This document shows, piece after piece, positions 6,047-62,201 of a stretch of DNA of 64,000 nucleotides (position 1 is its first letter; the number at the start of each line of letters is the position of its first letter). Below the pieces are notes generated by a model. It searched no databases. It was not told the DNA's origin and saw nothing but the letters and a program-made list of their open reading frames with translations. The stretch covers positions 1,098,717 to 1,162,716 of the forward strand of contig CBDBPH010000001.1 of assembly GCA_965208665.1 (NCBI GenBank). Reading direction: 5' to 3'. The stretch comes from Dehalococcoidia bacterium (GTDB lineage: Bacteria > Chloroflexota > Dehalococcoidia > Bin125). The translations under genes were made by a program, and so were the position numbers.

Positions 6047-6964
6047 TCAGACCCCAGCGTAGGAGTGCAGACCGGAGATCCAGAGATTGACGCCCAGATA
6101 CGTGAACATCACGGCAAAGAAGCCCAACACGACGATCCAGGCGCTCCGCGCTCCGCGCAGTTGGCGCAGTCCACGACCGTGGATGTAGACCGCAAAGATC
6201 AGCCATGTCACCAGAGCGGCGGTCTCCTTCGGATCCCAGCCCCAATAGCGGCCCCAGGCGTCGTTCGCCCAGAACGCGCCCAGCGCGACCCCGGCCGCCA
6301 GCAGGGGAAACCCAACAAGGACCGCTCGATAGGTCAGCTCGTCGCAGCGCTCGGCCGAGGGCAACCATTCGTAGCGGCCGCCCAGCACGGCGACCCGCGC
6401 CGGAAATCCCTGTACCAGGTGCATCACCGCGCCGCCAAACGCGACCGCCAGCACCGCGTAGGAGAGGATCATCAGAGCCACATGGATCGTCAACAGCGTT
6501 GGACTCTGCAGCGCGGGTACCAGCACTTCCTGCCCGCCGCTCGGGAATGCCAGTGCCGATCCGTACAGCCCGCAGGCGACCGGAAGCACGAACGCTCCCG
6601 CCAGCCTCGTACCGGCGCGCAACTCGAAAATGCCATAGAGCAGCACAATGGCCACGCCGAATGCCATGGAAAACTCGAACAAGTTGCTGTATGGGGCGTG
6701 ATTCAGTGCGATCGAGCGCATCACCAATCCGGCAATCCCCAGGGCGGCCGCCGTCCACACGCTCAGCGTGGCGATCCCGCCCAGCGTCGGCGAGCGAAGC
6801 GGCTCAGGTTCGGGGGCCGGAAGCGAGGGCTCGGTCACTGCCACTCGCCGCGACGCCCAGGCGAAACGGAATCGCGGTTGCAATGCGTACAGCACCGACG
6901 CCAGCGCGGCGCAGCCAGCGGCGACAAAGCTCGCCCAAAGCAAGAACAGCGCGCCCTCAGCCAT
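6047..6964 (-). CDS. ccsA: Cytochrome c-type biogenesis protein CcsA/ResC (system II heme handling)
   Basis: Multi-pass membrane protein with the tryptophan-rich WWD motif FWANDAWGRYWGWDPKETAAL. Start moved to the internal MAEGALF (ATG at 6964) because the upstream R-rich 22 codons of the track ORF look spurious. Confidence 0.8.
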   Translation of the reverse strand: MAEGALFLLWASFVAAGCAALASVLYALQPRFRFAWASRRVAVTEPSLPAPEPEPLRSPTLGGIATLSVWTAAALGIAGLVMRSIALNHAPYSNLFEFSMAFGVAIVLLYGIFELRAGTRLAGAFVLPVACGLYGSALAFPSGGQEVLVPALQSPTLLTIHVALMILSYAVLAVAFGGAVMHLVQGFPARVAVLGGRYEWLPSAERCDELTYRAVLVGFPLLAAGVALGAFWANDAWGRYWGWDPKETAALVTWLIFAVYIHGRGLRQLRGARSAWIVVLGFFAVMFTYLGVNLWISGLHSYAGV

Positions 6965-7838
6965 CGCTGGTCTCCGAGTTCTCCGACGCCGCCGCCTCTG
7001 CGTCCGCCTTCGCCTCCGCCTTGAGCGCATCCGATCGACGCGGGGCTCGCGCTTCGCCGAACGTCAATCGACGGAATCCTTCGGACCACGGGATTCGGCC
7101 TGCTCGCGCGGCCTGCTGAGACCGATTACGCATCCGCTTCGCCATCTCCTCGCGATTCGGCGCCTGGACCTGCGAGGCGTGGCGTAGGAGGGCATCGATT
7201 CGACGGTCGAGTTGGTCGGACACGTCAACGAAGTAGTTCGGCTCATTGCTCCCGGCGAGCAGGACCGTGTTGACCCGCACCGGTTCGACGCCCGTCGCTA
7301 CCTGCTCCGCGTAGGAGTTGGCATTGCGAGAGAGGGGAAAGACCGCATCCAAGGCCGCGATACCGACCGTGCGATGGTCCCGATGATTGAACCCGCGATA
7401 GCCGTCCCAGGTGATCATCAGCTCGGGTCGGACATCGCGCAGTACGCGCACCATCTGTCCGCGAAACTCTGAGCCGTCTTCCACGTGACCGTCGGGGACT
7501 CGCAAGAAGATGCAGCGCCTGATCCCTAGCTCCGAGGCAGCCGCTTCCTGCTCGGCTTCGCGTAGGGCGCCAAGATCGGCCGGCCCCAGCATCGGATCCT
7601 TGGTGCCCTTGTCTCCGCTCGTGACGAGACAGAACGTGACTTCCCAGCCGTCATCCGACAACTGGGCCACTGTCCCGCCGCAGGTGAATTCGATGTCGTC
7701 CGGATGCGCCATCACGACCAGCGCTCGGCGCGCCTCCGCAGGAGCCTCGGCGTCCGGCATGTCGGCTCCCAACTTCTCCGATGCGGCGTGGTCCTCTAAC
7801 TCGCCGCCACTAACAGCGACTCCACCGAGTCCGGGCAA
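6957..7838 (-). CDS. PIG-L/LmbE family N-acetylglucosaminyl deacetylase (MshB/BshB-like)
   Basis: AHPDDIEFTCGGT matches the LmbE/PIG-L zinc-deacetylase signature (AHPDDE). The true start may be the internal MPDAEAP near 7760. The 3' end overlaps ccsA. Confidence 0.75.
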   Translation of the reverse strand: MPGLGGVAVSGGELEDHAASEKLGADMPDAEAPAEARRALVVMAHPDDIEFTCGGTVAQLSDDGWEVTFCLVTSGDKGTKDPMLGPADLGALREAEQEAAASELGIRRCIFLRVPDGHVEDGSEFRGQMVRVLRDVRPELMITWDGYRGFNHRDHRTVGIAALDAVFPLSRNANSYAEQVATGVEPVRVNTVLLAGSNEPNYFVDVSDQLDRRIDALLRHASQVQAPNREEMAKRMRNRSQQAARAGRIPWSEGFRRLTFGEARAPRRSDALKAEAKADAEAAASENSETSDG

Positions 7839-9094
7839 CAGGAGTCGCGCTGCGAGCCTGCCACCTCGGGCTCATTCAGCAGGTCCTGGTACACATCGAG
7901 AATACTGCGGGCGACGCTGTTCCAGGAGAACACGGCCATCTCGGCCGCAGCGGCGGCCCCCATCCGGCTTCGCAGCGCGTCGTCGGAGAGCAGCCGATCA
8001 ATCGCCGATGCGAAGTGTTCAGGTTGCCGATCCTTGGCCAGTAGGCCGGTCTTACCGTGCGTGATCGTGGTGGCCAACCCGCCGACCCTGGTCGCCACCG
8101 GTGGCGTGCCCGAAGCCATCGCCTCGACCGCTACCAGGCCGAATGACTCGTACGCCGACGGCACCGCGCAAACCGCAGCCGCACGGTACAGGTCCGGCAA
8201 TCGCTCTCTGTCGACGGCATTGACGAATCGGACGCGCTCGGCGACCCCGCAAGCATCGGCCAGGCCGCGCAAACGCGCGCGCTCGCCCTCATCTCGCTCG
8301 TCGCCGCCGGCGATCCAGAGCAGCGCGTTGGGCCGAGCCTGGATCAGCGGCAGCGCCTGGATCAGCAGATCGGCGCCCTTGGCCTCTTCCAGCCGGCCAA
8401 CGAACAGGATGCCGGGACCCTCGTCAACGCCGAGCTCGGGCATTGCGGTGGCCACGCGGCGACGCGAGTCGCCGACACCAGAGGGATGGAAGCGCGACAG
8501 ATCGATCCCGCATGGGACGACGCGGACGCGCGATGCGTCCGCTCCGTACTGCCCGATCAGGAATGCCCGCTCATGGGATGTCGCTCCGATGATCACGTCG
8601 GAACAAGCCACAACCTGCCGCTCGCCGGCGATGCGGAAGGGCGGCTCCGGCCGTTGGAACACCTGCTTGACCGCGCCCAGCGTGTGGAACATCACTGCGT
8701 GCGGACATTGCCAGCGGCGCGAAAGCTCGATGCCACTGAGTCCGGCCACCCAATAGTGGGAATGGACGAGGTCGTATTCGTCGTGCCCGGCCGCAATCCG
8801 GGCCACGCCCTCGGTGAACTCGGAGACGTGCGCGGCCACTTCGATCGGCGGCAGCACCACCGGAGGGCCGGCATCGACGTGGAACAGCCGCGCACCAGGC
8901 ACGAACTCTTCGGCGTACGGCGCATCCGGCTGGTCACGTCGGGTGAAAATGTCGACTTCCCAGCCCATGTCAACGAGTTGGCGCGACAGTTCAGCCACGT
9001 AGACGTTCATGCCGCCGGCTTTGGTCGTACCCGCCTTGGCCAGCGGTGACGTGTGCGTGGACATTACGGCCAGACGCCGTCGAGGTCGCCTCAT
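7796..9094 (-). CDS. GT4 family glycosyltransferase, MshA-like (retaining GT-B)
   Basis: The N-terminus HTSPLAKAGTTKAGGMNVYV closely resembles MshA (D-inositol-3-phosphate GlcNAc transferase). The C-terminal part carries an E-x7-E style GT4 motif region. Confidence 0.85.
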   Translation of the reverse strand: MRRPRRRLAVMSTHTSPLAKAGTTKAGGMNVYVAELSRQLVDMGWEVDIFTRRDQPDAPYAEEFVPGARLFHVDAGPPVVLPPIEVAAHVSEFTEGVARIAAGHDEYDLVHSHYWVAGLSGIELSRRWQCPHAVMFHTLGAVKQVFQRPEPPFRIAGERQVVACSDVIIGATSHERAFLIGQYGADASRVRVVPCGIDLSRFHPSGVGDSRRRVATAMPELGVDEGPGILFVGRLEEAKGADLLIQALPLIQARPNALLWIAGGDERDEGERARLRGLADACGVAERVRFVNAVDRERLPDLYRAAAVCAVPSAYESFGLVAVEAMASGTPPVATRVGGLATTITHGKTGLLAKDRQPEHFASAIDRLLSDDALRSRMGAAAAAEMAVFSWNSVARSILDVYQDLLNEPEVAGSQRDSCCPDSVESLLVAAS

Positions 9095-10086
9095 CTCGCG
9101 ACCTCCCTCGTCAGCTGGATCCGGCGCACGACGGCGTCGCGGCCACCCAACTCGTACTTGTACGGCTCATCACCACGCAAGAAGTTCACGCTCGACATCC
9201 CCCGCTCAACCGCATCGCGGATGCACAGCACCTTCGACGCCAATCCAGCCGACAGGTCACGGAACTTGGGATTGTAGCCACTGTTGTATAGCAGCAACTG
9301 ATTCTGAGCTACGAAACACAACACGATCGCCGCGGCCTCGCCCGAGACCGACATAACATACAGCCGCAACCAACCAGCCTCTGACAGCGACGCGCTCAGA
9401 CGCTCGAAGAAGGAGCGCATCTCCTCGGTCAGGAATACGGCCTTGTCGCCGCGAGAGTCCGCCATCATCGACATGAACGCAGGCATCCAGGCCGCCACCT
9501 CCTGCGGAGTCTCGACCGATTCGAACTGTACGGCCCCGCGAAGCTGGCGCAGTGGTCGCAGCTTGCGCCGTACCTCGCGCCGATCCCGCGGGCGCAGTGT
9601 CGACAAGTATGCCTCCCAGCCGTCGCCAACCTCCACTGTCGGACAAACCGCTTCCTGCGCAACGTCAACCCGCCAACCGCGCTCCGACGCGATCGCGAAG
9701 AGGCTCTCCCAGTTGGAACCGGGTTCGATGCCGCGGAACTCCGCCGTCTGCGCATCGGATGCCTCGAGGCGATCGAGCACAGCGGAGGCGAGCGCTGGTT
9801 CCTTCCCGGCCTGCGCCACCGGTCCGAGGTAGTCCGACACCTCATGGTCGCCGGCGAAGGTCCAATGTGTCTCGCAGCGCCTGAGTGGGGCCAGGCCGAC
9901 CAGTTCGCCGGTCCCGTTCTCCAGCCCCACCAGCTCCAGTTCGCCGCAGGCGGATTCGCCAAACACCGACCACCACGCCTCGCCGAACTCGGGCGTTGAG
10001 AACGGCGTCGCCGGGACTGTGCGGCAGAGTGCGCTCCAGCGCTCGCGCAGATCGGCGTATTGCCCGCTGACGACAGCCAAACTCAC
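9091..10086 (-). CDS. FemAB-like / BioF2-like GNAT-fold acyltransferase (Acetyltransf_6-type)
   Basis: 331 aa. The C-terminus [14 protein letters not shown] is typical of the PF13480 FemAB-like family, with a two-lobed GNAT-like organisation. Start/stop overlap both neighbours by 4 nt. Confidence 0.65.
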
Positions 10087-10658
10087 AGTCGCTGCGTCCC
10101 GACCAGCGAGAGGAACTCTGCTCGCGTCTCTTGCTGCTCAAGAAAACTGCCCCGCATCGCCGAAGTCAGCATGCGCGAGCCCGGCTTCTTGATCCCCCGC
10201 ATCTGCATGCAGAGATGCTCCGCTTCGACGGCGACCGCGGCGCCCTGCGGCTGAATCGTGTCCATCAGCACGTCGGCAATCTGAGCCGTCAGCCGTTCCT
10301 GCAACTGCGGCCGCCGAGCCATCGCATCGACGAGGCGGGCCAGCTTGGAGAGTCCAACGACGCGGCCATTGGGCACGTAGCCCACGTGGGCGATTCCGTG
10401 GAACGGCATCAGATGATGCTCGCACATCGAGAAAAAGGGCACGTCGCGTAGGATGACCATCTCGTCGTGGCCTTCTTCGAAGCCCACTGACAATAGCGCC
10501 GGAATATCAATATCCGGACCGCCAAGCGTTTCCTCGTACGCCGCTACGACCCGGCGCGGCGTGTCGCGCAGCCCCTCGCGATCGGGATCCTCGCCCAGCG
10601 CCAGCAGAAGATCACGGACGGCGGCCTCTGCTCGTTCGCGATCGACTCGACCGCTCAT
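10083..10658 (-). CDS. folE: GTP cyclohydrolase I
   Basis: 191 aa with [10 protein letters not shown] and the HVGYVP...VVGLSKLAR motifs of FolE. Confidence 0.93.
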
Positions 10659-11746
10659 TGCAGCCCCTCCTCGATCGCCGCCGCTGCTTCTTCGAAGTTC
10701 GAGCCGATCTCTACCACGTCGGCGCGAATCGACTCCACCGCCCGCTCAGGGTCCTTCAATCCGTGTCCGGTGATCGTGCAAACCACGCGTCGGCCGGCCA
10801 GTGAACCGCTTCCGTGCCGGGCGAGTAAGCCCGCGACCGAGGCCGCCGAAGCCGGCTCGCAGAAGATGCCTTCCTCGCTGGCCAAGGTCCGATACGCATC
10901 GAGGATCTGTGTGTCCGTCGTGGAGATGATCGAACCACCTGACTGGTCTCGCGCCGCGATGGCGCCATCCCAGGACGCCGGCGCGCCGATCCTGATCGCC
11001 GTCGCGATCGTCTCGGGACGCTTGACTGGTCTCCCGTGCACCAGGGGCGCCGCGCCCGCGGCCTGAACGCCAAGCATGGCCGGCCGCTGCGAAGCCCGCT
11101 CGGCATGGAAGTACTCGCAGTAGCCGTGCCAATAGGCGGTGATGTTTCCAGCGTTCCCGACTGGGATGCAGTGCAAATCTGGCGCATCGCCCAGCGAGTC
11201 GACGATCTCCATTGCCGCCGTCTTCTGACCTTCAATCCGGTACGGATTGACCGAGTTGACGAGCGCCAGCGGCAGCCGACCGGTCAGTTCCTGCGCCAGG
11301 CGCAACGCATCATCGAAGTTACCGTCGACCGCGAGCACCCGCGCGCCGTGGGCCGCCGCCTGGGCGAGTTTGCCCTGCGCAATCCGACCCTCCGGAACCA
11401 GCACAAAGGCCCGCAACCCGCAGCGTGAAGCATAGGCCGCTGCCGAGGCGCTGGTGTTGCCGGTCGATGCGCAGAGCACCGCGGTCGCTCCCTGCTCGAC
11501 CGCCTTGGCCACCGCCACTACCATCCCGCGATCCTTGAACGAGCCGGTCGGGTTGCACAACTCCAGCTTCAGCCAGACCTCGTCTGCGCCAGTCGCGCGT
11601 TCAAGACTCTCGGCCCGGACCAGAGGCGTGCTGCCCTCGCCCAACGTGACGCATGGCGTCGATTCGGTCACCGGCAGCCAGTCGGCGTAGCGCTCGAGCA
11701 CTCCGCCGCCGGCCCACGAGCCGGTCCTGACGGTGCTGCTAGCCAT
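10655..11746 (-). CDS. thrC: Threonine synthase
   Basis: 363 aa. PLP-lysine motif [17 protein letters not shown] and a glycine-rich loop, fold type II PLP enzyme. Confidence 0.92.
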
Positions 11747-12761
11747 CGTTGCGGACTCGCAGATACGACTTCAACTCGCGGATCTCCTGCTCTAGTTCCT
11801 CAATCTGTCTCCGTCGCACCTGTTCTTGCAGGGCCACGAAGCGTTCCTGTTCTTGTGCGGTGAGCGCGGACACCCCCTCGATCCGGTCGCCCAGCGAGGC
11901 GACGGCACGCTCACGACGGGCATCACGGGCACGGAGCTGCTCGCCCATCCGCTCGACGTTGCCGATCCGCTCCTCCAGCGCCTCTGACCCCCGTTGCACA
12001 GACGACACGATCGCTCGGGACGCATCCAGCGCCTGCAACGATTCCTCGATCCGGCCGCGCAACGCGTCGACATTGTTCTTCAGGTCGTCCCATTGCTCGG
12101 CGGTCTCCTGCACGCGACGCAGGCTCTGATACGAGAGCTCCAACCGCTCCGTAACTCCGTGCAACTGACGCTCGAGCGCGTCAATCCGACCCTCCAACGC
12201 GCTGCTCTCTCCCGAGGCTCGGCGCAGTCCGTCGGCATTGGCTGAAATCCGCGCGCCGAGTGCGACCTGACTGTTTTCGATCTGCGACAGCCGATGCGTC
12301 AGTTCGCCTCCTTCGGTGTTGACCCGACGAATCGCCTCGTCGAAGACGCTCAGCCGCTCGCGTAGGTCGTTCAGCGACTTCTCGCTCGCCTGTAGTCGGC
12401 GCAGCGCATCGTTGGCCGTCTCTCGCTGAACATCGAGATCCTGGCGCACCTGTCGAATCGAGGTCTCCGCCAGTTCTCGGCTCTCGTCAAGTTCGCCGCC
12501 GAAGCGCCCAAGTCGCTCTCGCAGCGCTTGGACCTCTTCCAGTTGCCTCAGCGATGCCCCAACCTCGGTCGCCAACGTCAGGGCGCGGCCCTCGAGTTCT
12601 CGCAAGCGTTGATCGAGGCCGCTCAGCTCTCGTTCGTCGCGCACATGCGATTGCGCCAGCTCAGCGGTCTGACTGCGTAGGCCCGCGATCGATTCTTCGA
12701 TTCGCAGCCAGCGAGTGTCGGCTCCATCTACCGGATCAGTCGTCGTCACAGCCATCCTCAA
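11739..12761 (-). CDS. Hypothetical coiled-coil protein
   Basis: 340 aa. Almost entirely heptad-like L/E/R/Q-rich helix with no recognisable catalytic motif. Wedged between hom and thrC with overlapping boundaries. No competing gene on the opposite strand. Confidence 0.55.
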
Positions 12762-14043
12762 TCCGAAGCCGCACGCCCAGCTCGATCACCGAGTCCGAGA
12801 GCTCCAACCCATCCAACACCCGTTGCAACGCCCCATCGCTGCAGCCGTGAGTCGTGACGATGAGGTCCGCCGACTGACTCCGCTCGGGATGCGGCGTCTG
12901 CAGCACGGAGGCGATGCTCACGCCCTCGGCCGCAAACACCGCTCCCAATTCTGCCAGCACGCCTGCACGATCGGGAACTTCCAATCGCAGATATGTCCGC
13001 ACCCAGAGGTCTGATAGTGGAACGAACTGCGGCGAAGGATCTATTGGCCGCAGCCGTCGAGGCGCCTGTTCCGAGGCGAGCCGGCTGCCGACGTCGAGAA
13101 TGTCTGCCACTACGGCGCTTGACGTCGCGCCGGCGCCGGCACCAGGACCCTCGAGCACCACCGAACCGATCAGGTCTCCCGAGACCGACACCGCATTGAG
13201 CACGCCTTCGACCGCGGCCATCGGATCGGAGACCGGCACCAGCGTGGGATGGACACGGAGATCGAGTCCGTCCGCAGTCTGCCGAGCCGTGGCCAGCATG
13301 CGGATGGCGTAGCCCAGGTCGCGGGCGTGGACGAAGTCGCGCGCCTCGAGTGAGCGGATGCCCTCGCAATGCACGTCGTCCGGTCCCACTTGCGAGTGAA
13401 ACGCAAGCGAGGCCAGGATCGCCAGCTTGTAGGCCGCGTCGATGCCGTCCACATCATTGGTCGGGTCGGACTCGGCGTAGCCCAGGCGCTGCGCCTCGGA
13501 CAAGGCCTCTGCATAGCCTTTGCCCTCCTGCGACATCTCGGTGATCATGTAGTTGGTCGTGCCGTTGATGATCGCTCTCACCGACGACACATCATTGGCC
13601 TGCAGATCTCGTTGCAGCACACCGATGATCGGGATACCGCCACCGACGCTCGCCTCATAGCGGAGTTCGGCTCCGCGCTCTTCCGCCAGCGCCAACAGCG
13701 CCGGGCCCCGTTTCGCCATCACTTCCTTGTTGGCGGTCACTACCGACTTGCCGGCCGATAGCGCCGCCTCGATACAGTCCGCCGCGGGCGTCTCACCGCC
13801 CATTAGTTCCACCACGACATCGACGTCATCATTTCCCACGACAGCGAACGGATCATCGGACAGCGAGAGCCCCCCAGCCGCCAGATCGGCGCGCGCGGCC
13901 ACGTTGCGAACTGCGGCCGCACGGACTTCCAACCTACGCCCGCAGCGCGCCTCGTACGCCCGGGCATTGCCCTGCAGGGCCTCGAGCACGCCGTGTCCGA
14001 CGACCCCAAGTCCGAGCAATCCAATCCCCAACGACTTCGGCAT
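12736..14043 (-). CDS. hom: Homoserine dehydrogenase
   Basis: 435 aa. N-terminal NAD-binding GLLGLGVVG, a central homoserine-DH domain and a C-terminal ACT domain. Confidence 0.93.
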   Translation of the reverse strand: MPKSLGIGLLGLGVVGHGVLEALQGNARAYEARCGRRLEVRAAAVRNVAARADLAAGGLSLSDDPFAVVGNDDVDVVVELMGGETPAADCIEAALSAGKSVVTANKEVMAKRGPALLALAEERGAELRYEASVGGGIPIIGVLQRDLQANDVSSVRAIINGTTNYMITEMSQEGKGYAEALSEAQRLGYAESDPTNDVDGIDAAYKLAILASLAFHSQVGPDDVHCEGIRSLEARDFVHARDLGYAIRMLATARQTADGLDLRVHPTLVPVSDPMAAVEGVLNAVSVSGDLIGSVVLEGPGAGAGATSSAVVADILDVGSRLASEQAPRRLRPIDPSPQFVPLSDLWVRTYLRLEVPDRAGVLAELGAVFAAEGVSIASVLQTPHPERSQSADLIVTTHGCSDGALQRVLDGLELSDSVIELGVRLRIEDGCDDD

Positions 14044-14744
14044 CAGGCGTCGGACTCCTCACTGGCAGGAGCGGGTTCGTCGACCGACGCCGCCGCATCG
14101 GTCGGAGCGGGCTCCTCCTGAACAGCTTCGACCTGCGGGGCAGCTTCGACCTGCGGTTCAACATCGACCTGCGGTGCGGCTTCGGCCTGCGCTTCAACCT
14201 CGGCCTGCGCTTCAACCTCGGCCTGCGGCGCAGCCTCTGCCTGTGGCGCAGCGTCGACCTGCGTGGCTGCCTCGGCCTGCGGTGCGACGTCGTCAGGCGG
14301 AGCAGCCGCCTCGGCGCCGCCCTCGGCCGGAGCCTCCGGCGGAGCGTCATCGAGTTCCGCCCGCATCGCCCGCTGAGCCATCCTCGTCACCATGCGGAAG
14401 CGTGATGTCTGGCGCATGTGCTCAGCCGTGTAGGGCAGAAGCGCCACTTGACGCGCCCGCTTGATCTCTCGCGCGACCTTGCGCTGGTCCTTGGCCGTTA
14501 GGCCCGTCTTGCGCCGAGGCTCAATCCGACCGCGGTCCGAAATCAGCTTCTTCAGGCGGTCGACATCCTTGTAGTCGATTGTGGCGACCTCCTGTGGCGT
14601 AAAGATCGGCGCGCGGCGACGACGCCCACGACGTCGCGTGCGTTCGATCATCTGCGGCAGGCGCTCGCTCGACTCCGGCGCCGGCGTAATCCGCGGCGCG
14701 GGTTCCGGCGCCGGCTCAATAATCGGTTCGGATTCAGTCGTCAT
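14043..14744 (-). CDS. rpsR: 30S ribosomal protein S18 with N- and long acidic, repeat-containing C-terminal extensions
   Basis: The core [61 protein letters not shown] is S18. Start set at MTTESEP (ATG at 14744, GGAG 9 nt upstream). About 120 aa of A/E/Q/P-rich tail follow, encoded by 18-bp tandem repeats. Confidence 0.88.
14124..14285 (-). repeat. About 9 tandem copies of an 18-bp unit (consensus about CAGCTTCGACCTGCGGNN on the plus strand) inside the rpsR 3' region
   Basis: Direct reading: cagcttcgacctgcgggg / cagcttcgacctgcggtt / caacatcgacctgcggtg / cggcttcggcctgcgctt / caacctcggcctgcgctt ... These encode (A/V)(A/E)PQ(A/V)(E/D) hexapeptide repeats. Confidence 0.85.
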
Positions 14745-14801
14745 CAAACAATCTCCAGGATGTTGTTCGTCACATGCCAACCGGGCGCGCGACGCGTCTG
14801 G

Positions 14802-16990: not shown

Positions 16991-18097
16991 TCAACCAGAC
17001 AACTCTCGCTCCAGCTCCAGGCGCGACCAGGCGGCATCGATCCCGGCCAACACGCCGCCGCTGACCAGCGAATGACCGCCCATCATCACGGCCGAGTCCT
17101 GGAGCATCGAGACCAATCCGCGCAACCGTTCATCCGTGATCACGTCCCAGCGGCCGAGGTCCGCCCAGAATCGGTCGCAACGTGAGACATCCCAACCGAG
17201 ATGAGAGAGAAACGGGCGGGTGTCCCAGAGGGTCGCATCGCCCAGGCCGTCAAGCGCCAACAAGAACCCGTCCTGCCCGGCCCACTCATACAGCTCACCC
17301 AGCAGGGACCGAGCGCGACGCTGACGCGATCGTAGCCCGCGCTCCTCCGACAACACCCTGACCCGACAGGACGTGTCGCGATCTACTGCCGCCCAGTCCG
17401 AGCCGCTCACTCGTCCGGCGATCATGAGCTCGGCATCTTGCCGCGTCATGACGTCGAAGACCGTGAACGCCAACTGGACCGGCTCATCCAACTCAGGCTG
17501 ACGCGCGAGTGCGGCGCTTGTCGCTTGGCCGATCTCCAGCGATCCCACACTCGCAGCAGCCTTCAACACCGTTACGTCTGCCGGTGTGTCGATGTCCAGT
17601 ACGGAACGCGCCGACCGCTCATACGACACGACTGGTACATCACTGCCATCCCTGATCAGCAACGCGAATCGGTTGTCAACCGATTCGCCGGCCACGCAAC
17701 TCAGCAAGCGGCCAGCGGGCACCCCGATCCAGTCGCAGGAGAACATTCGGTTGGCCGTCGCCACGCCTGACTCGATCGCCTCACGCACCGACGACCAATC
17801 ATCTACGGTCATCGCCGGCATGCCGGAACCGGCGTAGCAGACCGGCCCACTCACATCGGCGGACGCCGCTGTCACGATGTCGCCGATCAGTTGCTCCTCA
17901 GTGGTTTCCTGGACAGACAGGTCGCCAATGGATTCGGTCGAAAACACCCGCACTCGATCGAATCCCGCCGCCTGCGCGCGCTCCGCCGTGTCTCGGAGCA
18001 CTGCGGCGCGCACCTCGTCGACCATCCGAACCGGAACGCAGTCATCACCAAATGGCCGATAGCAAAGCCAGAACTCTGAATTGCGACTGCCCGACAT
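16991..18097 (-). CDS. Hypothetical protein (possible MobA-like nucleotidyltransferase-fold N-domain)
   Basis: 369 aa from MSGSRNSEFW (ATG at 18097). Contains VLDIDTPADV, which resembles the DIDTPEDL motif of MobA/CofC-like NTP transferases, with no further recognisable signature. The upstream 41 codons of the track ORF overlap comF and were trimmed. Confidence 0.45.
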   Translation of the reverse strand: MSGSRNSEFWLCYRPFGDDCVPVRMVDEVRAAVLRDTAERAQAAGFDRVRVFSTESIGDLSVQETTEEQLIGDIVTAASADVSGPVCYAGSGMPAMTVDDWSSVREAIESGVATANRMFSCDWIGVPAGRLLSCVAGESVDNRFALLIRDGSDVPVVSYERSARSVLDIDTPADVTVLKAAASVGSLEIGQATSAALARQPELDEPVQLAFTVFDVMTRQDAELMIAGRVSGSDWAAVDRDTSCRVRVLSEERGLRSRQRRARSLLGELYEWAGQDGFLLALDGLGDATLWDTRPFLSHLGWDVSRCDRFWADLGRWDVITDERLRGLVSMLQDSAVMMGGHSLVSGGVLAGIDAAWSRLELERELSG

Positions 18098-18098
18098 C

Positions 18099-18812
18099 TC
18101 AGTCTGCCCGAGCCGCCGTCCAGGCATCGACGGCCCTCGCTCCGGCGGCGAGCAGCGTCCGAGCCGCCTCTGAAAGCGTCGAAGTCGTCGTCGACACATC
18201 GTCCACCAGCAGCACTCCACGACCCTTCACGAGCGATTCCTCGGCGGCGAAGGCGTTGGTCACGATGCTCCGCCGATCGACGCGCGACTTGGCCTGCGCC
18301 TGTCTCGGACCCCACCAGCCTCGACGACGCAGCGCCCGTGTCTCCAGCCTCATCCGTGTCCGTTCCGCCACGACCCGCGCCAGGTGCTCCGCCTGATTGC
18401 CGCCGCGTCGGCGCTTGCGCAACAGCGGGATCGGAATCGGAACGATCATCTCGATGTCGCGGGCTGGCTCGATCTTTCCACTTGTTTCGACCAACAGCCG
18501 CGCCAGATCCTTGACGCCGCGATGCTTCAGCGCCAGCACGGCCGCGCGCGCCGGTCCGTCGTACACGAATCCGGAGCGCAACTCGCGCAGGGGTAATGGC
18601 CTGGACAGGCAGTTTCGGCAGACCGGCGACTCCGAGGTCAGCCAGCAGTGGCGGCAACGCTTGCCGTCGGCACGCTGCATGAGTGCGCGACACGGGCCGC
18701 AAATCAGGTCGCCGGCCGCTCCACACGACGCACAGTGTGGGGGCAAGGCGACATCGATCAGGGCCTGCAGGGCGCCCAGCGCGAGACCGACCGGCCGATA
18801 GACTGGATCCAT
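18099..18812 (-). CDS. comF: ComF-family phosphoribosyltransferase (ComFC-like)
   Basis: Start trimmed to MDPVYRP (ATG at 18812). N-terminal Zn-ribbon CxxC...CxxC (PPHCASCGAAG...CGPC; CRHCW...CRNC) followed by a PRTase domain (VLLVDDVSTTTSTL). The upstream 123 codons of the track ORF are S/R-rich and rejected. Confidence 0.8.
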   Translation of the reverse strand: MDPVYRPVGLALGALQALIDVALPPHCASCGAAGDLICGPCRALMQRADGKRCRHCWLTSESPVCRNCLSRPLPLRELRSGFVYDGPARAAVLALKHRGVKDLARLLVETSGKIEPARDIEMIVPIPIPLLRKRRRGGNQAEHLARVVAERTRMRLETRALRRRGWWGPRQAQAKSRVDRRSIVTNAFAAEESLVKGRGVLLVDDVSTTTSTLSEAARTLLAAGARAVDAWTAARAD

Positions 18813-49548: not shown

Positions 49549-50751
49549 CTATTCCAGGATGGTCGTGACCGCGCCCGCGCCGACTGTGCGGCCGCCCTCG
49601 CGAATCGCGAAACGCAAACCCTCCTCCAGCGCAATCGGCGAGATCAGGCGCACCTGCATCTGCACGTTGTCCCCAGGCATCGCCATCTCCACCCCCTCCG
49701 GCAAGCCAATCTCGCCCGTCACATCCGTCGTGCGAATGTAAAACTGCGGTCGGTAGCCCGGGAAAAACGGACTGTGCCGCCCGCCCTCGTCCTTACTCAG
49801 GATGTACACCTCCGCCGTAAACGCTGTGTGCGGCGTGATCGAACCCGGCGCCGCCAACACCTGTCCGCGCGTGATCTCGTCCCGGTCAATGCCACGCAAC
49901 AGACAACCCACGTTGTCCCCCGCCTCGCCCGTCGGCAGCGTCTTCTTGAACATCTCCACGCCCGTCACCACCGTCGTGCGCGTGTCCTTGATCCCCACTA
50001 TCTCAATCTCCTCGCCACTGTTCACCACCCCCCGCTCGATCCGCCCCGTCGCCACCGTGCCCCGCCCCTTGATCCCGAACACGTCCTCAATCGGCATCAA
50101 AAACGGCTGCTCCACCGGCCGCGGCGGCGTCGGCACGTACTCGTCCACCGCCTCCATCAACTCCATGATCGAGGCGTACTCCGCCGCACTCGGATCCGTC
50201 GAGTCCGACTCCAACGCGTGCAACGCCGAACCGCGGATCACCGGAATGTCGTCCCCCGGAAACTCGTAGTCACTGAGCAGCTCCCTGACCTCCAACTCGA
50301 CCAGGTCCAACAACTCCTCGTCGTCCATCTGATCCACCTTGTTCAGGTAGACCACCATCCGCGGCACCCCCACCTGGCGCGCCAACAAGATGTGCTCCCG
50401 CGTCTGCGGCATCGGTCCGTCCGGAGCGGCGACGACGAGAATCGCGCCGTCCATCTGCGCCGCACCCGTAATCATGTTCTTGATGTAATCCGCGTGACCC
50501 GGCGCGTCAATGTGCGCGTAGTGCCGCTGCTCCGTCTCGTACTCCACGTGCGCAATCGCAATCGTGATCCCCCGCGCGCGCTCCTCCGGCGCCTTGTCAA
50601 TCGAGTCGAAACTCGAAAACGACACGTTCTCCGACTGCATCGCCAACGCCTTCGTGATCGCCGCCGTCAGCGTCGTCTTGCCGTGATCCACGTGCCCAAT
50701 CGTGCCCACGTTCACGTGCGGCTTGGTTCGCTCGTATACCTGTCGCGCCAT
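49549..50751 (-). CDS. tuf: Elongation factor Tu (copy 2, tRNA-linked tufB-like copy)
   Basis: 400 aa, differing from copy 1 by a single residue (YETEQRHY here versus YETEARHY). Nucleotide identity is confined to the coding region. Confidence 0.97.
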
Positions 50752-51528: not shown

Positions 51529-52260
51529 GTGACACGCATCCTGATTGCCGCCGTTGCAGCGGCATTCGTGGCCGGCGCCATCGGCCTGGCCTCCATGCAA
51601 CCGGTCTCCGCCCAACCCGGCGGACCATCCGTCTGCCTCTCCCTCCCGCCCGGAGACCACACCTTCACCGCTCCCTCGCAGGACCGTGAGGGCGAGGTGT
51701 CGTTCACGGTCACCGTCGGAGATGGCGGCCTCGTGACCGCCTTCACCGAGCCGGGCGGACAGTCGATCCCACCCGTCGCGATGCTCGAAATCTTCACCGG
51801 CGAAGACGCCTACCCACTCCCGGAAGGTGTCTCATTCATCGAATGTGAAGCTTCCGGCGACGGCATGCAGGAGGCCGGCAAGGCGCCCGAGCTGTGTCTC
51901 AACCTCGATCCGGGCACCTACGAGGAATCCGTCAGCGCCAGCGGCAGGGTCGTCGACATCACGATCCACGTCGGCGAAGGCAACCGGTTGATCGCGGTCG
52001 ACGTCCTTGGCGAATCATACGGGCCCGCCGAAGCGCTCGACCTGCTCGCCCAGTTCGGCGCATCCATCCCGCCCCACATCGAGATCGTGCCGTGTGAGCC
52101 GACCAAGGCATTCCCCTACACCGGTAGCGGTGGCCTCGCCGACACAAGCAGTCTCGCCGGCCTCTGGGCCGGACTGGCTTCGCTCGCCGTGGTCCTGATC
52201 TCGATCGCCGCCTTCAGGCAACGACGACGCATCGTCATTCGCCGCGACGACGAAGTCTAG
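51529..52260 (+). CDS. Secreted protein with C-terminal sortase-type sorting signal (cell-surface anchored candidate)
   Basis: N-terminal signal peptide (MTRILIAAVAAAFVAGAIGLASMQPVSAQP). The C-terminus reads FPYTGSGG, then a ~25-aa hydrophobic helix, then RQRRRIVIRR, that is an LPXTG-like tripartite motif / TM / basic-tail architecture. Confidence 0.7.
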   Translation: MTRILIAAVAAAFVAGAIGLASMQPVSAQPGGPSVCLSLPPGDHTFTAPSQDREGEVSFTVTVGDGGLVTAFTEPGGQSIPPVAMLEIFTGEDAYPLPEGVSFIECEASGDGMQEAGKAPELCLNLDPGTYEESVSASGRVVDITIHVGEGNRLIAVDVLGESYGPAEALDLLAQFGASIPPHIEIVPCEPTKAFPYTGSGGLADTSSLAGLWAGLASLAVVLISIAAFRQRRRIVIRRDDEV

Positions 52261-53720
52261 AAGCGCAACGCGCTCTCAACCAGCGACTCGGCGCCGGGCT
52301 CCTCCTCGACCTGCTCAGGTTCAGGCTGGACTCGGCGCCAACGCGTTCCGTCGCGCGTGTCCTCCAGCGCCACACCCAGATCCGTCAGACGATCGCGAAC
52401 CGAATCCGCCAGCTCGTACTGCCTCGCCCCGCGCAACTCCTGGCGGATTGAGACCAGCAGGTCAATAAACGGCTCCGCGTCCGACTCACCGCTCGCGGAC
52501 ACACCGGCGAAGCCGAGACCGAGCACGTCGCCCAGCTCGACGAGGGCTCGCTGGGCCAACCCGGCCGGGCGATCGTCGGAGCGCGCCCGATTGACCTCCC
52601 GCGCCAGGTCGAACAACACCGCCAGCGCCTGCGGCGTGTTCAGATCATCGTCCAGCGCCGCGATAAACGTCTCCCGCGCGTCGGTCGGATCGAGCTCACC
52701 CTCGCCGTCGACCAGCGGAAGCATCGCCGCCGTTCGCAACCGCTCCGCTCCGCGCGCCGCAGCCGACAACGACTCCTCCGAGTAGGTCAGCGGCGAACGG
52801 TAGTGCCCGCCCAGGACGAACATCCGCAGGCCGTCCGCGCCGTATCGATCCAGGCCCTCGCGCAACGCGACGATCTTGCCGGTCGACTTCGACATCTTCT
52901 CCCCGCCGACCTGCATCATCGCGTTGTGCATCCAGTGACGCACGAACGGATCGAGGCCCGAATATCCCTCCGACTGAGCGATCTCATTCTCGTGATGCGG
53001 AAAAATCAGATCCATCCCGCCGCCGTGTAGATCGATCTGCTCACCCAGGTAACGAATTGACATCGCCGAACACTCGATATGCCAGCCCGGACGACCCGGC
53101 CCCCACGGACTCTCCCACTGCGGCTCGCCCGGCTTCGCGCCCTTCCAGAGCGTGAAGTCCATCGCGTGCTCTTTTGCGACGCCGATGTCGGTCGGTTCCG
53201 CCGAGATCATGTCGTCCAACGACCGGCCCGAGAGCTTGCCGTAGCCGGGCATCTCGCCGACGCGAAAGTACACGTCGCCGCCCGCCGGATAGGCCATGCC
53301 CTTCTCGATCAGCTCGCCGATCAGATCCAGCATCTGCGGAATCTCCTCGGTCGCCCGCGGATGCACATCGGCCGGCGCGATGCCCAGCTCGCGCCACTCG
53401 CCCATGAACGAGGAGATCTGCCGTTCTGCCAACTCAGAGACCGAAATCCCCTCCTGCGCCGCGCGAGCGATGAGCTTGTCGTCGACATCCGTGAAGTTGT
53501 ACACCAGCCGCACGCGCCGCCCGCGCCACTCCAGAAACCGCCGAAGCGTGTCGAAGATGATGATCGACATCGCGTGGCCCAGATGTGCGTCGTCGTACGG
53601 CGTGATCCCGCAGACGTACATCGAGATCGGATCATCCAACGGCTCAAACGGCTGTTTGCGACGTGTCAGCGTGTTGTACAGCTTCACGGACCAACCCCCA
53701 AGCGCGATCAATACAGGCAA
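52257..53720 (-). CDS. cysS: Cysteine--tRNA ligase
   Basis: HLGHA (HIGH) motif, KMSKS motif and zinc-binding Cys in class I aaRS order. Confidence 0.95.
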   Translation of the reverse strand: MPVLIALGGWSVKLYNTLTRRKQPFEPLDDPISMYVCGITPYDDAHLGHAMSIIIFDTLRRFLEWRGRRVRLVYNFTDVDDKLIARAAQEGISVSELAERQISSFMGEWRELGIAPADVHPRATEEIPQMLDLIGELIEKGMAYPAGGDVYFRVGEMPGYGKLSGRSLDDMISAEPTDIGVAKEHAMDFTLWKGAKPGEPQWESPWGPGRPGWHIECSAMSIRYLGEQIDLHGGGMDLIFPHHENEIAQSEGYSGLDPFVRHWMHNAMMQVGGEKMSKSTGKIVALREGLDRYGADGLRMFVLGGHYRSPLTYSEESLSAAARGAERLRTAAMLPLVDGEGELDPTDARETFIAALDDDLNTPQALAVLFDLAREVNRARSDDRPAGLAQRALVELGDVLGLGFAGVSASGESDAEPFIDLLVSIRQELRGARQYELADSVRDRLTDLGVALEDTRDGTRWRRVQPEPEQVEEEPGAESLVESALRF

Positions 53721-57790: not shown

Positions 57791-59668
57791 ATGCCCACCA
57801 TCGACATCGATCCCCTCCTGCGCGGCGTCTCCAAGCCCGCCCGCTACGTCGGCGGCGAGTGGAACGCAATCGAGCACGACTGGAACGAGCGCGCCGTCCG
57901 CTGGGCCCTGATCTACCCGGACCTCTACGACATCGGCCAGTCCAACGGTGGCCTCGCCATCCTCTACGACGTCCTCAACCACACCGACGACACGCTTGCC
58001 GAGCGCTGCTACACCCCCTGGCCCGACATGGCCGACAGCCTGCGCAGCCGCGGCCAACCGCTCTTCTCTCTTGAAAACCGGCGCGGCCTACGCGACTTCG
58101 ATGCCCTCGGCTTCTCGCTCTCCTACGAGCTCACCTACACCAACATCCTCGAGATGCTCGACCTCTCCGGCATCCCGATTCGCAGCCTCGACCGCGATGA
58201 GAACGATCCACTCATCCTCGCCGGGGGCTCCGGCGCGCTCGTCCCCGAACCACTCGCTCCGTTCATCGACGCCTTCGTCCTCGGCGAGGCCGAAGACGTC
58301 ATCCTTGAAATCAACGACCTCCTCCACGAGGCCAAGTCTCAAGGCGCATCCCGTCTCGACCTGCTGCGAGCCCTCGCGCGAACTCCCGGCGTCTACGTGC
58401 CCCGCTTCTATGAATGGCGGTACGAAACCGACGGAACGCCCGCCGAGGTCTTCGCCACCGACGACGCGGCCTCCGTTCCCGTCGTCAAGCGCTTCCTCCA
58501 GGGACTCCCGCCGATTCTGACCAATCCGATCGTCCCGTACCTGCAAACCGTTCACGACCGCGCCGGGATCGAGATCCAGCGTGGCTGCACGCAGGGCTGC
58601 CGGTTCTGCCAGGCCGGCATGATCTACCGCCCGCTGCGCGAACGCACGCCCGAGGAAGTCGTCGCCGGAGCCAGGGAACTCTTCCGCAACACCGGCTTCG
58701 ACGATCTCTCGCTCGTCTCCCTCTCCTCCACTGACCACTCGCAGATCAAGGCCATCGTCCGAGCATTGCGCTCGGAGTTCGGCGACGACATCGGCATCTC
58801 CCTGCCCTCCACCCGCGTCGACAGCTTCAGCGTCGATGTCGCCCTGCTCTGCTCGCCGCGCAAGAAACACTCGATGACCTTCGCCCCCGAGGCCGGCTCC
58901 CAGCGACTGCGCAACGCTGTCAGCAAGGTCGTCGACGAGCAGGACTTGCTCGACGCCGCCCGCAACGCCTTCGAACAGGGCTGGACGTCGATCAAGCTCT
59001 ACTTCATGGTCGGTCTACCGACCGAGACCATGTCCGACGTCGAGGGCATCGTCGACTGGGCCTCGCAGGTACGCCAGATTGGCCGTCAAATCGTCGGCAA
59101 CCGCGTTCGCGTTCGGGTTTCCACCTCGAATCACGTGCCCAAGGCGCACGCACCCTTCCAGTGGGCCCGACAGGAAACGCCGGCCGAACTCGAACCCAAG
59201 CACCAACTGCTCAAGCAACGTACCCGCAAAGCCCGCCTCGACCTGAGCTGGAACGACCCGCAAGAATCGATCCTCGAAGGCGTCCTCTCCCGCGGTGACC
59301 GCCGCCTCGCCCCTGTGATCGAGACCGCCTGGCGCAACGGCGCCCGCTTCGACGCCTGGAGCGAGCATCTCCGCGAGGACCTCTGGTGGAACGCCATGGC
59401 CCAGGAAGGTCTCGATCCCGCTTTCTACTGCCATCGCGAGCGCGACCTTTGGGAGCGCTTCCCCTGGATGCACATCGCCTCCGGGGTTTCCGAGGCCTTC
59501 CTGCGCAAGGAATGGCAGCGCACCTGGAAGGAACTCACCACCGCCGACTGCCGCGACGGCTGCAACGTCTGCGGCATGGAACACGCCGCACAGCTTTGCG
59601 AACTCAAACTCGGCGACCTGATCGCCAAACGTCGTGCCCCATCTGAGGAACTCATCAGCGTCCTATAG
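57791..59668 (+). CDS. B12-binding domain-containing radical SAM protein (TIGR03960-like)
   Basis: N-terminal B12-binding-like domain, radical SAM CTQGCRFC (CxxxCxxC) and a C-terminal extension domain. Confidence 0.88.
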   Translation: MPTIDIDPLLRGVSKPARYVGGEWNAIEHDWNERAVRWALIYPDLYDIGQSNGGLAILYDVLNHTDDTLAERCYTPWPDMADSLRSRGQPLFSLENRRGLRDFDALGFSLSYELTYTNILEMLDLSGIPIRSLDRDENDPLILAGGSGALVPEPLAPFIDAFVLGEAEDVILEINDLLHEAKSQGASRLDLLRALARTPGVYVPRFYEWRYETDGTPAEVFATDDAASVPVVKRFLQGLPPILTNPIVPYLQTVHDRAGIEIQRGCTQGCRFCQAGMIYRPLRERTPEEVVAGARELFRNTGFDDLSLVSLSSTDHSQIKAIVRALRSEFGDDIGISLPSTRVDSFSVDVALLCSPRKKHSMTFAPEAGSQRLRNAVSKVVDEQDLLDAARNAFEQGWTSIKLYFMVGLPTETMSDVEGIVDWASQVRQIGRQIVGNRVRVRVSTSNHVPKAHAPFQWARQETPAELEPKHQLLKQRTRKARLDLSWNDPQESILEGVLSRGDRRLAPVIETAWRNGARFDAWSEHLREDLWWNAMAQEGLDPAFYCHRERDLWERFPWMHIASGVSEAFLRKEWQRTWKELTTADCRDGCNVCGMEHAAQLCELKLGDLIAKRRAPSEELISVL

Positions 59669-59689
59669 GGAGAAAGAGGCCGACAACGT

Positions 59690-60170
59690 CATGTCCCGAG
59701 AAGTTCTCGAACATCTCATTTGGAGCCTCGACCAATCATTCCAGGAAAAGAAAGAACACTCCCTGGTCCAGAATCTCTCCTCGGTCACCACCGATGACCT
59801 GGACGAGGTCGTGCCGGGCGGCGGCCGCACCATGCGCGACCTGATCATCCATTGCGCCGCGGTCAAGTTCATGCACGCCAACCACGCCTTCGGCGACGCC
59901 ACCGCCACGTTTTGGAACACCTGGGATAAGGAAGAGCCCGTCAGCGAAGCGTCCTTCGAGGATCTCCTTGACTGGCTTGAAGCGGCTCACGCCCAGGTCA
60001 TCAAGGCCGTGAATGACCTACGCGACGACGACGAACTCGTCGCCAAGCGCCCGACCTACTGGGGCGAAGAGTGGGAGACACGCCGCATCCTCGATGCAAT
60101 CGCCGTACACGACGTCTATCACGCCGGCGAAATCAACCACCTCCGGGCCCTTCTCCATCAGGTCGACTGA
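59690..60170 (+). CDS. DinB/YfiT-family four-helix-bundle metalloprotein
   Basis: Start placed at MSREVL (RBS GGGAGAAAGAGG 8 nt upstream). Conserved His pattern (IIHCAAVKFMHANH...HDVYHAGEINH) of the DinB_2 family. Confidence 0.78.
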
Positions 60171-61497: not shown

Positions 61498-62201
61498 GTC
61501 GTGTCGCCCGATCCGTCGTCGCGCACGATCGAGTGGCCCATTGCGCCTTGGACGAATTCGTCGATCGACGCGCCGATCGTCGTGTCATCGCCGTGACCGT
61601 TGAACGTCAGCGTGTCCTCAGGCAGCGGGTAGAGCTTGGTCACGATCGAGCGCACCTCCTGCGTCACCTGCGGCATTCCACGGGTGTTCCCGGGACCGCC
61701 CGGGAACAGCGTATCCCCGACCACACAGTACGGGTCGTCGGGATCGGAAATGTAGAACGAGATTGAACCGGTGGTATGTCCCGGCGTGTGCAACACCTCA
61801 AGCTCGTTGTCGCCCAACAGGATCGTTTCGCCGCCCTGGAGGTGGATATCTACATCGAGGTCCGTCTCTAGCCAGGGATGCTGCTCGTCGGCCACGGTGT
61901 CGGAGACGTGCATATAGTACGGAACGTTCGGACCGAGCCACTCCCGTAGCTCGTGGTACGACTTGATGTGATCGGGATGCGAATGTGTGAACAGCACCAT
62001 CTTGGGTGTTGCTCCCGACTCCTCAACGCCGGCCATGACCAGCTCATGCTGCGCCACGGCGTCGATGATCGCCGCGTCGCCCGTGCCTTTGTCAACCAGC
62101 ACAAACGCGTTGTTCTCGAACGGGCCCCACGACATCTGCATCACCACCACCCGCGAATACACTCGCAACAGACGCGATTCCGCGTGCAGTCCCAGACTCA
62201 T
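61482..62201 (-). CDS. MBL-fold metallo-hydrolase
   Basis: THSHPDH (HxHxDH) motif and downstream His/Asp ligands. Hydroxyacylglutathione-hydrolase-like size. Confidence 0.85.
   Translation of the reverse strand: MSLGLHAESRLLRVYSRVVVMQMSWGPFENNAFVLVDKGTGDAAIIDAVAQHELVMAGVEESGATPKMVLFTHSHPDHIKSYHELREWLGPNVPYYMHVSDTVADEQHPWLETDLDVDIHLQGGETILLGDNELEVLHTPGHTTGSISFYISDPDDPYCVVGDTLFPGGPGNTRGMPQVTQEVRSIVTKLYPLPEDTLTFNGHGDDTTIGASIDEFVQGAMGHSIVRDDGSGDTTWGAE

Follow-up and report, generated by a model that had tools for sequence, protein, structure and literature searches.

Mycothiol and bacillithiol are glucosamine-based counterparts of glutathione, each made with a GT4 glycosyltransferase, a deacetylase of the PIG-L family and its own cysteine ligase. 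In the mycothiol pathway of Actinomycetota (MshA, MshA2, MshB, MshC and MshD) N-acetylglucosamine (GlcNAc) is transferred by the GT4 enzyme to a phosphorylated acceptor, the conjugate is deacetylated by the PIG-L enzyme and an amide is formed on the resulting glucosamine (GlcN). Bacillithiol synthesis (BshA, BshB and BshC) likewise combines a GT4 enzyme, a PIG-L deacetylase and the addition of cysteine, and the early steps of glycosylphosphatidylinositol (GPI) synthesis, by PIG-A and PIG-L, place a GT4 enzyme before a PIG-L-family deacetylase that acts on a GlcNAc-inositol conjugate. The amine of an amino sugar can also be aminoacylated directly from a charged tRNA, as is done with Gly-tRNA by Orf11/Sbb17, the FemABX-like enzyme of BD-12 (streptothricin-type) synthesis. 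Members of the Chloroflexota abound in soils, sediments, the deep ocean and sponges, and the phylum has, to our knowledge, no assigned low-molecular-weight thiol. Here we describe three adjacent genes in a stretch of 64,000 nucleotides (64 kb; the window) from a metagenome-assembled genome (MAG) of a Dehalococcoidia bacterium of this phylum (GenBank assembly GCA_965208665.1, contig CBDBPH010000001.1, positions 1,098,717 to 1,162,716). They keep the first two enzyme types of the thiol pathways and have a Fem-fold enzyme in the place of the ligase, and may thus be a gene set for the missing Chloroflexota metabolite. We tentatively read them as one module making a soluble N-acylated, most likely N-aminoacylated, alpha-glucosaminide on the mycothiol/bacillithiol plan, a reading to which we give a probability of roughly 0.4.

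The cassette is part of a long series of genes on the minus strand (GC content about 65%) and comprises, in the direction of transcription, a Fem-fold tandem-GNAT transferase (9091-10086, 331 residues; PF13480), a retaining GT-B glycosyltransferase of family GT4, of the subgroup of MshA and a Thermosynechococcus sucrose-phosphate synthase (7796-9094, 432 residues; PF00534 and PF13439), and a PIG-L/LmbE-family zinc deacetylase (6957-7760, 267 residues from the ATG at 7760; PF02585). An earlier note on this DNA, made from its letters alone, had placed the three genes here; reading the sequence confirms their positions and strand, and profile searches return the families it had named. It had also described all three as overlapping start to stop. 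This is so for the transferase and GT4 genes, which have ATGA in common (a 4-nucleotide overlap, with a GGGAGG ribosome-binding site in front), but not for GT4 and PIG-L, where only an alternative TTG start at 7838, giving a longer PIG-L reading frame, produces an overlap. Since the ATG at 7760 has a GGGAG ribosome-binding site 5 nucleotides upstream, agrees with the N-termini of homologues and gives exactly the 267-residue protein of the public gene calls, the two genes are most likely separated by a gap of 35 nucleotides. Searches inside the gene string found neither an Rfam element, riboswitches included, nor a credible terminator. The public records carry only generic names (“GNAT family N-acetyltransferase”, “glycosyltransferase”, “PIG-L family deacetylase”).

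When the cassette is set beside mycothiol synthesis, the logic is the same and the parts differ: the GT4 enzyme and the deacetylase score below the MshA and MshB cutoffs, the window holds no MshC, the hosts are Chloroflexota and others rather than Actinomycetota, and the place of the ligase is taken by a Fem-fold transferase, which would imply aminoacyl-tRNA rather than ATP/adenylate chemistry. A similar picture emerges for bacillithiol. BshB1 is the best match of the deacetylase, at 97 bits against a cutoff of 182.5, whereas the GT4 enzyme reaches only 82 bits on the BshA model (cutoff 274), its conserved phosphate-binding residues favour an acceptor with a phosphate group over malate, and there is no BshC-like gene in the cluster. 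The suggestion of a GPI-like pathway, also made in the earlier note, found no support and was rejected: the phosphatidylinositol-utilising GT4 enzymes PimA and PimB' are distant from that of the cassette (about 65 bits), enzymes of the later GPI steps were not seen, none of the partners conserved in 81 loci is lipid-related, and the next GPI step is an O-acylation of inositol, not an N-acylation of GlcN.

To see how far the arrangement extends, 80 public genome loci (numbered L below) were fetched with a profile of the transferase, and adjacency was counted from tblastn high-scoring segment pairs. The GT4 gene lies immediately downstream of the transferase gene in 55 of the 80 loci, and PIG-L is the next gene after GT4 in 24 and is found within 6 kb of it in 33, so the arrangement is far beyond chance; 22 of the 55 GT4-bearing loci have no PIG-L gene within that distance. 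The relatives belong to the Chloroflexota, for the most part to MAGs of Dehalococcoidia; the closest carry the bin names SB0664, RHO1 and RHO3, presumably sponge-metagenome bins. The module is found in Dehalococcoidia, Anaerolineae, Chloroflexia, Desulfobacterales and Methylomirabilota, and MAGs of Tepidiformaceae are among its carriers. The order transferase, GT4, PIG-L recurs in Anaerolineae (L067, L075, L077), in low-GC MAGs of Dehalococcoidia-type or other Chloroflexota (L021, L038) and in Desulfobacterales (L057, L063), and pairs of transferase and GT4 occur in Methylomirabilota/Rokubacteria MAGs (L071, L072). It survives where all other synteny is lost (for example in L021, L038, L063 and L075), and PIG-L directly follows GT4 in these remote loci of unrelated context as well as in L077. 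The proposal of a single cassette is in this way upheld well beyond the source lineage. Among near relatives the transferase and GT4 both show 73-79% identity, compared with 83-94% for PIG-L and the flanking housekeeping genes; these matching values suggest that the two co-vary as a pair and that PIG-L is under tighter constraint. In one Anaerolineales MAG (L077, 7402-8373) an aldo/keto reductase gene (PF00248, E 5e-83) is inserted between transferase and GT4 in an otherwise intact cluster. Literature searches found no paper describing such a module or pathway.

The surroundings of the cassette were examined in the same loci. In the window thrC (10655-11746), folE (10083-10658), the three cassette genes and ccsB (about 6047-6964) follow each other on the minus strand, with an 8-nucleotide overlap between PIG-L and ccsB. 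When the open reading frames of the loci are clustered, thrC, hom, rpsR, ssb, rpsF, glyA, ccsB, rpsL, rpsG and fusA fall into a housekeeping synteny block, in the order glyA-rpsF-ssb-rpsR-hom-thrC-folE-...-ccsB-rpsL-rpsG-fusA-tuf, which is present in about 15 to 29 Dehalococcoidia loci. Of the reported coupling with folE, thrC and ccsA, the common orientation stands; the link with thrC and ccsB reflects a conserved housekeeping gene order, and we do not use it as evidence on the pathway. The position of the cassette among housekeeping genes, together with its retention across classes, argues for a role in primary metabolism rather than for a secondary-metabolite cluster.

The transferase scores 110.9 bits against PF13480 (Acetyltransf_6, a Fem-related GNAT family; gathering threshold 22, E 7e-32, residues 169-310), and all 62 aligned relatives match this family. 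Its score against the Pfam FemAB family (PF02388), 14.3 bits, is below the gathering threshold of 24; among the relatives, 37 of 62 give weak FemAB matches (best E-value 1.2e-5), 40 match FemAB_like and 3 the classical Acetyltransf_1. Searches of solved structures by sequence, with the single protein or with the 62-member profile, returned no match. We thus compared folds using an AlphaFold model built on the 62 relatives (predicted local distance difference test score 94.5). The highest fold-comparison scores are those of FemA (22.9), S. aureus FemX (22.1), Sbb17 (21.3; a peptide synthase dependent on aminoacyl-tRNA, its structure solved with streptothrisamine), Weissella FemX (21.2) and the MprF/L-PGS domains (19-21), with a hypothetical protein at 17.9 and acyl-CoA GNATs, MshD included, at 12.5 or less. 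The best structural matches are aminoacyl-tRNA-dependent enzymes, one of which aminoacylates an amino sugar, and the predicted structure has the tandem-GNAT Fem fold that marks FemABX transferases. The FemAB-like GNAT fold proposed for this protein is thus borne out by both the profile match and the modelled fold.

Two features of the sequence add to this. The family has an invariant basic helix (R169-x-E-x-R-R-K-x-R177) and further invariant Arg and Lys residues, and the motif EPYKYELGG, present at the C-terminal end of the translation as had been reported, contains an invariant Y309-K310, which we take, short of structural confirmation, to resemble the Phe-Lys pair of Fem enzymes. From the fold neighbours of the model and the invariant basic residues we infer that the donor is probably aminoacyl-tRNA. 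The literature offers a precedent for just this chemistry: the FemABX-like Orf11 turns streptothrisamine, the class of substrate present in the Sbb17 crystals, into glycylthricin in a reaction that depends on Gly-tRNA (PMC12945691, citing Maruyama et al. 2016). The cassette enzyme has no detectable sequence homology to Orf11/Sbb17, which is a Streptomyces secondary-metabolite enzyme, whereas the cassette transferase sits in a housekeeping neighbourhood and is kept across phyla. From FemX, FemA, FemB and MurM and the C-terminal domain of MprF it differs in lacking a coiled-coil arm of the S. aureus type and a membrane domain, and in having no peptidoglycan-precursor or lipid context.

For the GT4 enzyme, the N-terminus (HTSPLAKAGTTKAGGMNVYV) aligns to that of Corynebacterium glutamicum MshA (CgMshA), and the best NCBIfam match is the MshA family TIGR03449, matched over the full length at 351.7 bits, below the equivalog cutoff of 462.5, with the next family at 142 bits. 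The earlier note had described the N-terminus as closely resembling MshA. Calibration of the model shows that being MshA-like is not diagnostic: the true CgMshA scores 719.5 bits, and a score of 288.6 is reached by an enzyme that is no MshA, the sucrose-phosphate synthase of Thermosynechococcus (TeSPS). The biochemically proven TeSPS (Tll1590) in fact scores better on the MshA model than on the sucrose-phosphate synthase model TIGR02472 (144.8 bits). One consequence is that sub-threshold “MshA” annotations from hidden Markov models outside Actinomycetota are not trustworthy, given that a proven sucrose-phosphate synthase scores nearly as well. Among solved structures the cassette enzyme matches CgMshA (243.6 bits) and TeSPS (237.7 bits), and the mean identity of the 54-member family is 37% to MshA and 36% to TeSPS. 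Where family-conserved columns differ between the two, 16 match MshA and 8 match sucrose-phosphate synthase, and the motifs HTSPL, GGMNVY, HT and ESFG are of the MshA type, in contrast to HGDP, GGQNIY, HS and EPFG in TeSPS. Sucrose synthesis, moreover, needs neither a deacetylase nor an N-acyltransferase.

The residues of CgMshA that we take to contact inositol phosphate and UDP are N25, K78, Y110, H133, T134, R154, R231, K236, E316 and E324, a list that reportedly goes back to Vetting and colleagues in 2008. As in the mycothiol enzyme, most of them are present in the cassette family: all except K78 are kept in the window protein and in 47-54 of the 54 members. Two of the list, R231 and E324, are corroborated as site residues (PMC2628429). 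TeSPS and GT4 enzymes that make compatible solutes have the His/Arg/Glu architecture and the phosphate-binding Arg in common with the cassette enzyme, and in sucrose-phosphate synthase the equivalent Arg and His residues bind sugar-phosphate (PMC7264703). Because several of the conserved residues are common to sucrose-phosphate synthase, they point to a phosphorylated acceptor and not to inositol specifically. Judged by these comparisons, the enzyme is a third lineage in the subgroup of MshA and TeSPS and very probably glycosylates a small phosphorylated acceptor. The linked deacetylase and amine-directed transferase suggest UDP-GlcNAc as the donor.

The deacetylase scores 108.7 bits against PF02585 (gathering threshold 28.2, E 4e-31), and its translation contains the AHPDD motif for which it was first singled out, together with HRDH. 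Its best matches among solved structures are LnmX (119 bits) and an archaeal diacetylchitobiose deacetylase (104 bits), with MshB at 32 bits. It stays below every equivalog cutoff, BshB2 (71.4 bits, cutoff 195) and Mca (47.7 bits, cutoff 277) included, and the protein is nearer to LnmX, the diacetylchitobiose deacetylase and BshB1 than to MshB.

The analysis shows the families, the fold, the motifs and the linkage of the genes; for the donors, acceptor, amino acid and product of the pathway we infer the following route. With UDP-GlcNAc as donor, the GT4 enzyme would place GlcNAc on a small phosphorylated polyol or sugar, our best guess being inositol phosphate (inspection of the loci brought up no recognisable Ino1-like gene), and a phosphatase encoded elsewhere would strip the phosphate from the product. 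The PIG-L enzyme would then remove the N-acetyl group from the GlcNAc conjugate, and the Fem-fold transferase would acylate the freed glucosamine amine from aminoacyl-tRNA, replacing an ATP-dependent MshC or BshC; Cys-tRNA is the guess to make if the product is a thiol cofactor. Where the cluster also encodes an MshD-like tandem GNAT, as it does in some lineages, this enzyme would acetylate the amine of the amino acid. If the donor is aminoacyl-tRNA, tRNA-dependent amide formation would extend from cell walls, lipids and antibiotics to core cofactor or solute metabolism.

Several observations weigh against this route. The GT4 enzyme is below the MshA cutoff and about as similar to a proven sucrose-phosphate synthase, and K78 of MshA is replaced by Pro in the window protein and its subclade (Lys in 23 and Pro in 19 of the 54 family members). 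The deacetylase misses the cutoffs of both thiol families, with 96.6 bits for BshB1 (cutoff 182.5) and 52.8 for MshB (cutoff 224). Its gene is set apart from GT4 by the gap and is coupled to ccsB instead, and in the closest relatives it is more conserved (89-94%) than the transferase and GT4 (73-79%). In about 25 loci the transferase stands alone; the context of these solitary genes varies and gives no functional clue, some having a convergent HAD-like gene (seen by eye only). The transferase has a weak match to the NCBIfam BspF family, named a crotonyl transferase (E 3e-05, 22.7 bits, cutoff 775), the adjacency of folE to the transferase is not explained by an N-(amino)acyl-glucosaminide, and the MshD-like and GloB-like neighbours described below are confined to a minority of loci, do not reach the cutoffs of their families and have no counterpart near the window cassette.

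The match to BspF is the reason why the fold alone is no proof of a tRNA donor, and it leads to an alternative that retains the whole scaffold. Here the Fem-fold GNAT would use an acyl-CoA donor, and the product would be an N-acyl-glucosaminide, such as a signalling glycoside, the head group of a glycolipid or a compatible solute, rather than an amino-acid conjugate. In formal terms PF13480 belongs to the GNAT families, and, as we read the alignment and model, a loop (R276-x-x-S-x-G281) between the strand 263-271 and the helix 280-294 resembles a CoA-pyrophosphate motif; osmolytes would also be plausible in the sponge and marine metagenomes from which relatives come. Given the low fold scores of the acyl-CoA GNATs and the invariant basic residues, we consider such a donor rather unlikely.

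If instead the three genes served separate pathways, the transferase and GT4 would modify a glycan of the cell envelope and PIG-L would be an independent housekeeping deacetylase of the diacetylchitobiose/LnmX type. The gap before PIG-L, its coupling to ccsB and its much stronger conservation are all in keeping with this, as are its best solved relatives, LnmX and diacetylchitobiose deacetylase, and the 22 GT4-bearing loci where no PIG-L is near. Some sources name the transferase family CelD/BcsL, and a further search for homologues, started from a Chloroflexia protein, yielded MAG proteins only, with generic or “CelD/BcsL” names. However, PIG-L again directly follows GT4 in five remote and otherwise unrelated loci (L021, L038, L063, L075 and L077), the nearest characterised GT4 relatives act on soluble phosphorylated acceptors and not on polymers, and genes for cellulose synthase, polysaccharide export, Wzx/Wzy or lipid carriers were not seen in the loci examined. 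We therefore reject the cellulose reading of the CelD/BcsL name, and hold the separation of the genes into two pathways to be unlikely.

Reading the cassette as one glucosaminide module, additional partners are found in divergent relatives. In seven loci (L025, L028, L029, L044, L053, L057 and L059) the GT4 and PIG-L genes have between them, on the other strand, a gene for an MshD-like tandem GNAT of about 300 residues, a further likeness to the mycothiol gene set. The copy in L025 runs into the end of the fetched locus; the other six, when scanned, have MshD (TIGR03448) as their best NCBIfam match, at 74-96 bits against a cutoff of 163, most of them nearly over the full length. A 213-residue GloB-like hydrolase of the metallo-beta-lactamase (MBL) fold adjoins PIG-L in L021, L038, L044 and L057; three copies were scanned, with hydroxyacylglutathione hydrolase as best match (88-102 bits, cutoff 200.8), and those of L021 and L057 are 53% identical. 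The Desulfobacterales locus L057, with clean gene calls and 50% GC, has the full series of transferase, GT4, MshD-like, PIG-L and MBL genes. By analogy with the known pathways, such neighbours strengthen the likeness to a thiol cofactor. No MshD-like gene was found by tblastn within the window.

Two further genes are of note. The window encodes a GloB-like MBL hydrolase that is unlinked to the cassette (61482-62201, minus strand, about 52 kb away); its best match is likewise hydroxyacylglutathione hydrolase, below the cutoff, and it is 37% identical to the MBL protein of L057. A DUF502 membrane protein (PF04367) is encoded after GT4 in seven divergent loci (L028, 10175-10870; L039, 10433-11107; L053, 10524-11198; L059, 5714-6487; L065, 10110-10865; also L025 and L049) and is absent from the window cassette.

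The gene upstream of the transferase raises a different possibility. folE encodes GTP cyclohydrolase I (NCBIfam FolE, 265 bits, above cutoff) and overlaps the start of the transferase by 4 nucleotides, GTGA being common to both genes. It could belong to the pathway, whose product would then be a pterin amino-glycoside like solfapterin (neopterin-3'-glucosamine): FolE would lead to dihydroneopterin (phosphate), GT4 would add GlcNAc, PIG-L would deacetylate it and the GNAT would decorate the amine. Natural pterin glycosides with GlcN or GlcNAc are known (solfapterin, tepidopterin and limipterin), as are pteridine glycosyltransferases (PMC3546692 and references therein), and a neopterin phosphate would suit the phosphate-binding acceptor pocket. 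folE lies directly upstream of the transferase in 37 of the 80 loci, among them 12 without the thrC synteny (L019, L020, L026, L034, L035, L040, L042, L050, L060, L062, L067 and L076) and 3 without GT4, and owing to the persistence of the adjacency in those 12 we do not dismiss it as we do thrC and ccsB. Nevertheless, folE is missing from the cassette loci of Desulfobacterales, Methylomirabilota and several Chloroflexota (L021, L038, L063, L075 and others), it looks like an ordinary housekeeping enzyme, about 26 to 29 loci keep the synteny block around it, and the loci examined have no other pterin-tailoring genes nearby. The MshD-like and GloB-like neighbours do not fit a pterin either, and we regard a product of this kind as quite improbable.

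We searched the window for the ligase that ordinary thiol synthesis would use. Its only gene resembling a cysteinyl-tRNA synthetase, a CysS-like gene at 52257-53720, was considered as a candidate MshC and rejected: it scores 475 bits on the synthetase model TIGR00435 (cutoff 340) and 303 on that of MshC (cutoff 485) and is a true cysteinyl-tRNA synthetase. The window thus contains no MshC, in agreement with the expectation that this ligase is not the next-step enzyme here. Unlinked to the cassette, the window also encodes a DinB-superfamily protein of 178 residues (59634-60170, plus strand) that matches the mycothiol-S-transferase (MST) family PF04978 (32.3 bits, gathering threshold 27) as well as DinB_2. 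DinB/MST-type transferases use mycothiol or bacillithiol, and from its sequence the protein is a hint that the organism uses a sugar-thiol. That the genes serve ordinary mycothiol or bacillithiol synthesis, with GT4 as MshA or BshA, PIG-L as MshB or BshB, a ligase elsewhere and an unrelated GNAT, would agree with this protein and with MshA and BshB1 being the best NCBIfam matches, but is very improbable in view of scores that fall well short of the equivalog cutoffs (352 bits for a cutoff of 462.5, and 97 for one of 182.5), the 289 bits that a non-MshA enzyme reaches on the MshA model, the presence of a true cysteinyl-tRNA synthetase only, and the transferase being the tightest partner of GT4, adjacent in 55 of 80 loci and overlapping it by 4 nucleotides in the window.

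Within the aminoacyl-glucosaminide reading, a more specific and rather speculative version is that a Cys-tRNA-dependent route leads to an undescribed sugar-thiol, which Chloroflexota, together with some Desulfobacterales and Methylomirabilota, would use as their main low-molecular-weight redox buffer. The product may then be an aminoacyl-GlcN-polyol, N-acetylated where the MshD-like gene is present. The detection of novel, unidentified thiols in Chloroflexus aurantiacus dates back decades (PMC6336425), and a sugar-thiol of this type could be the “novel thiol” of Chloroflexus. If so, it would represent a third, tRNA-linked way of joining cysteine to glucosamine, and would tie redox-buffer synthesis to the pool of charged tRNA.

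Other genes of the window, all on the minus strand, show features of their own. A protein of 340 residues with coiled coils and weak SMC-like matches is encoded between hom and thrC (11739-12761) and is conserved in 17 loci, and a reading frame of 409 codons just beyond glyA (16991-18220) has a coding-like codon bias and no Pfam or NCBIfam match and is conserved in 15 syntenic loci. The rpsR product (14043-14780, 245 residues) has its S18 domain in residues 66-115 only, followed by an acidic repeat tail of about 130 residues. There are two tuf genes for EF-Tu (1352-2554 and 49549-50751), both of 400 residues and identical over the first 60, one in a str-operon context and the other beside tRNA-Thr/Tyr/Thr and a nusG-rplKAJL cluster.

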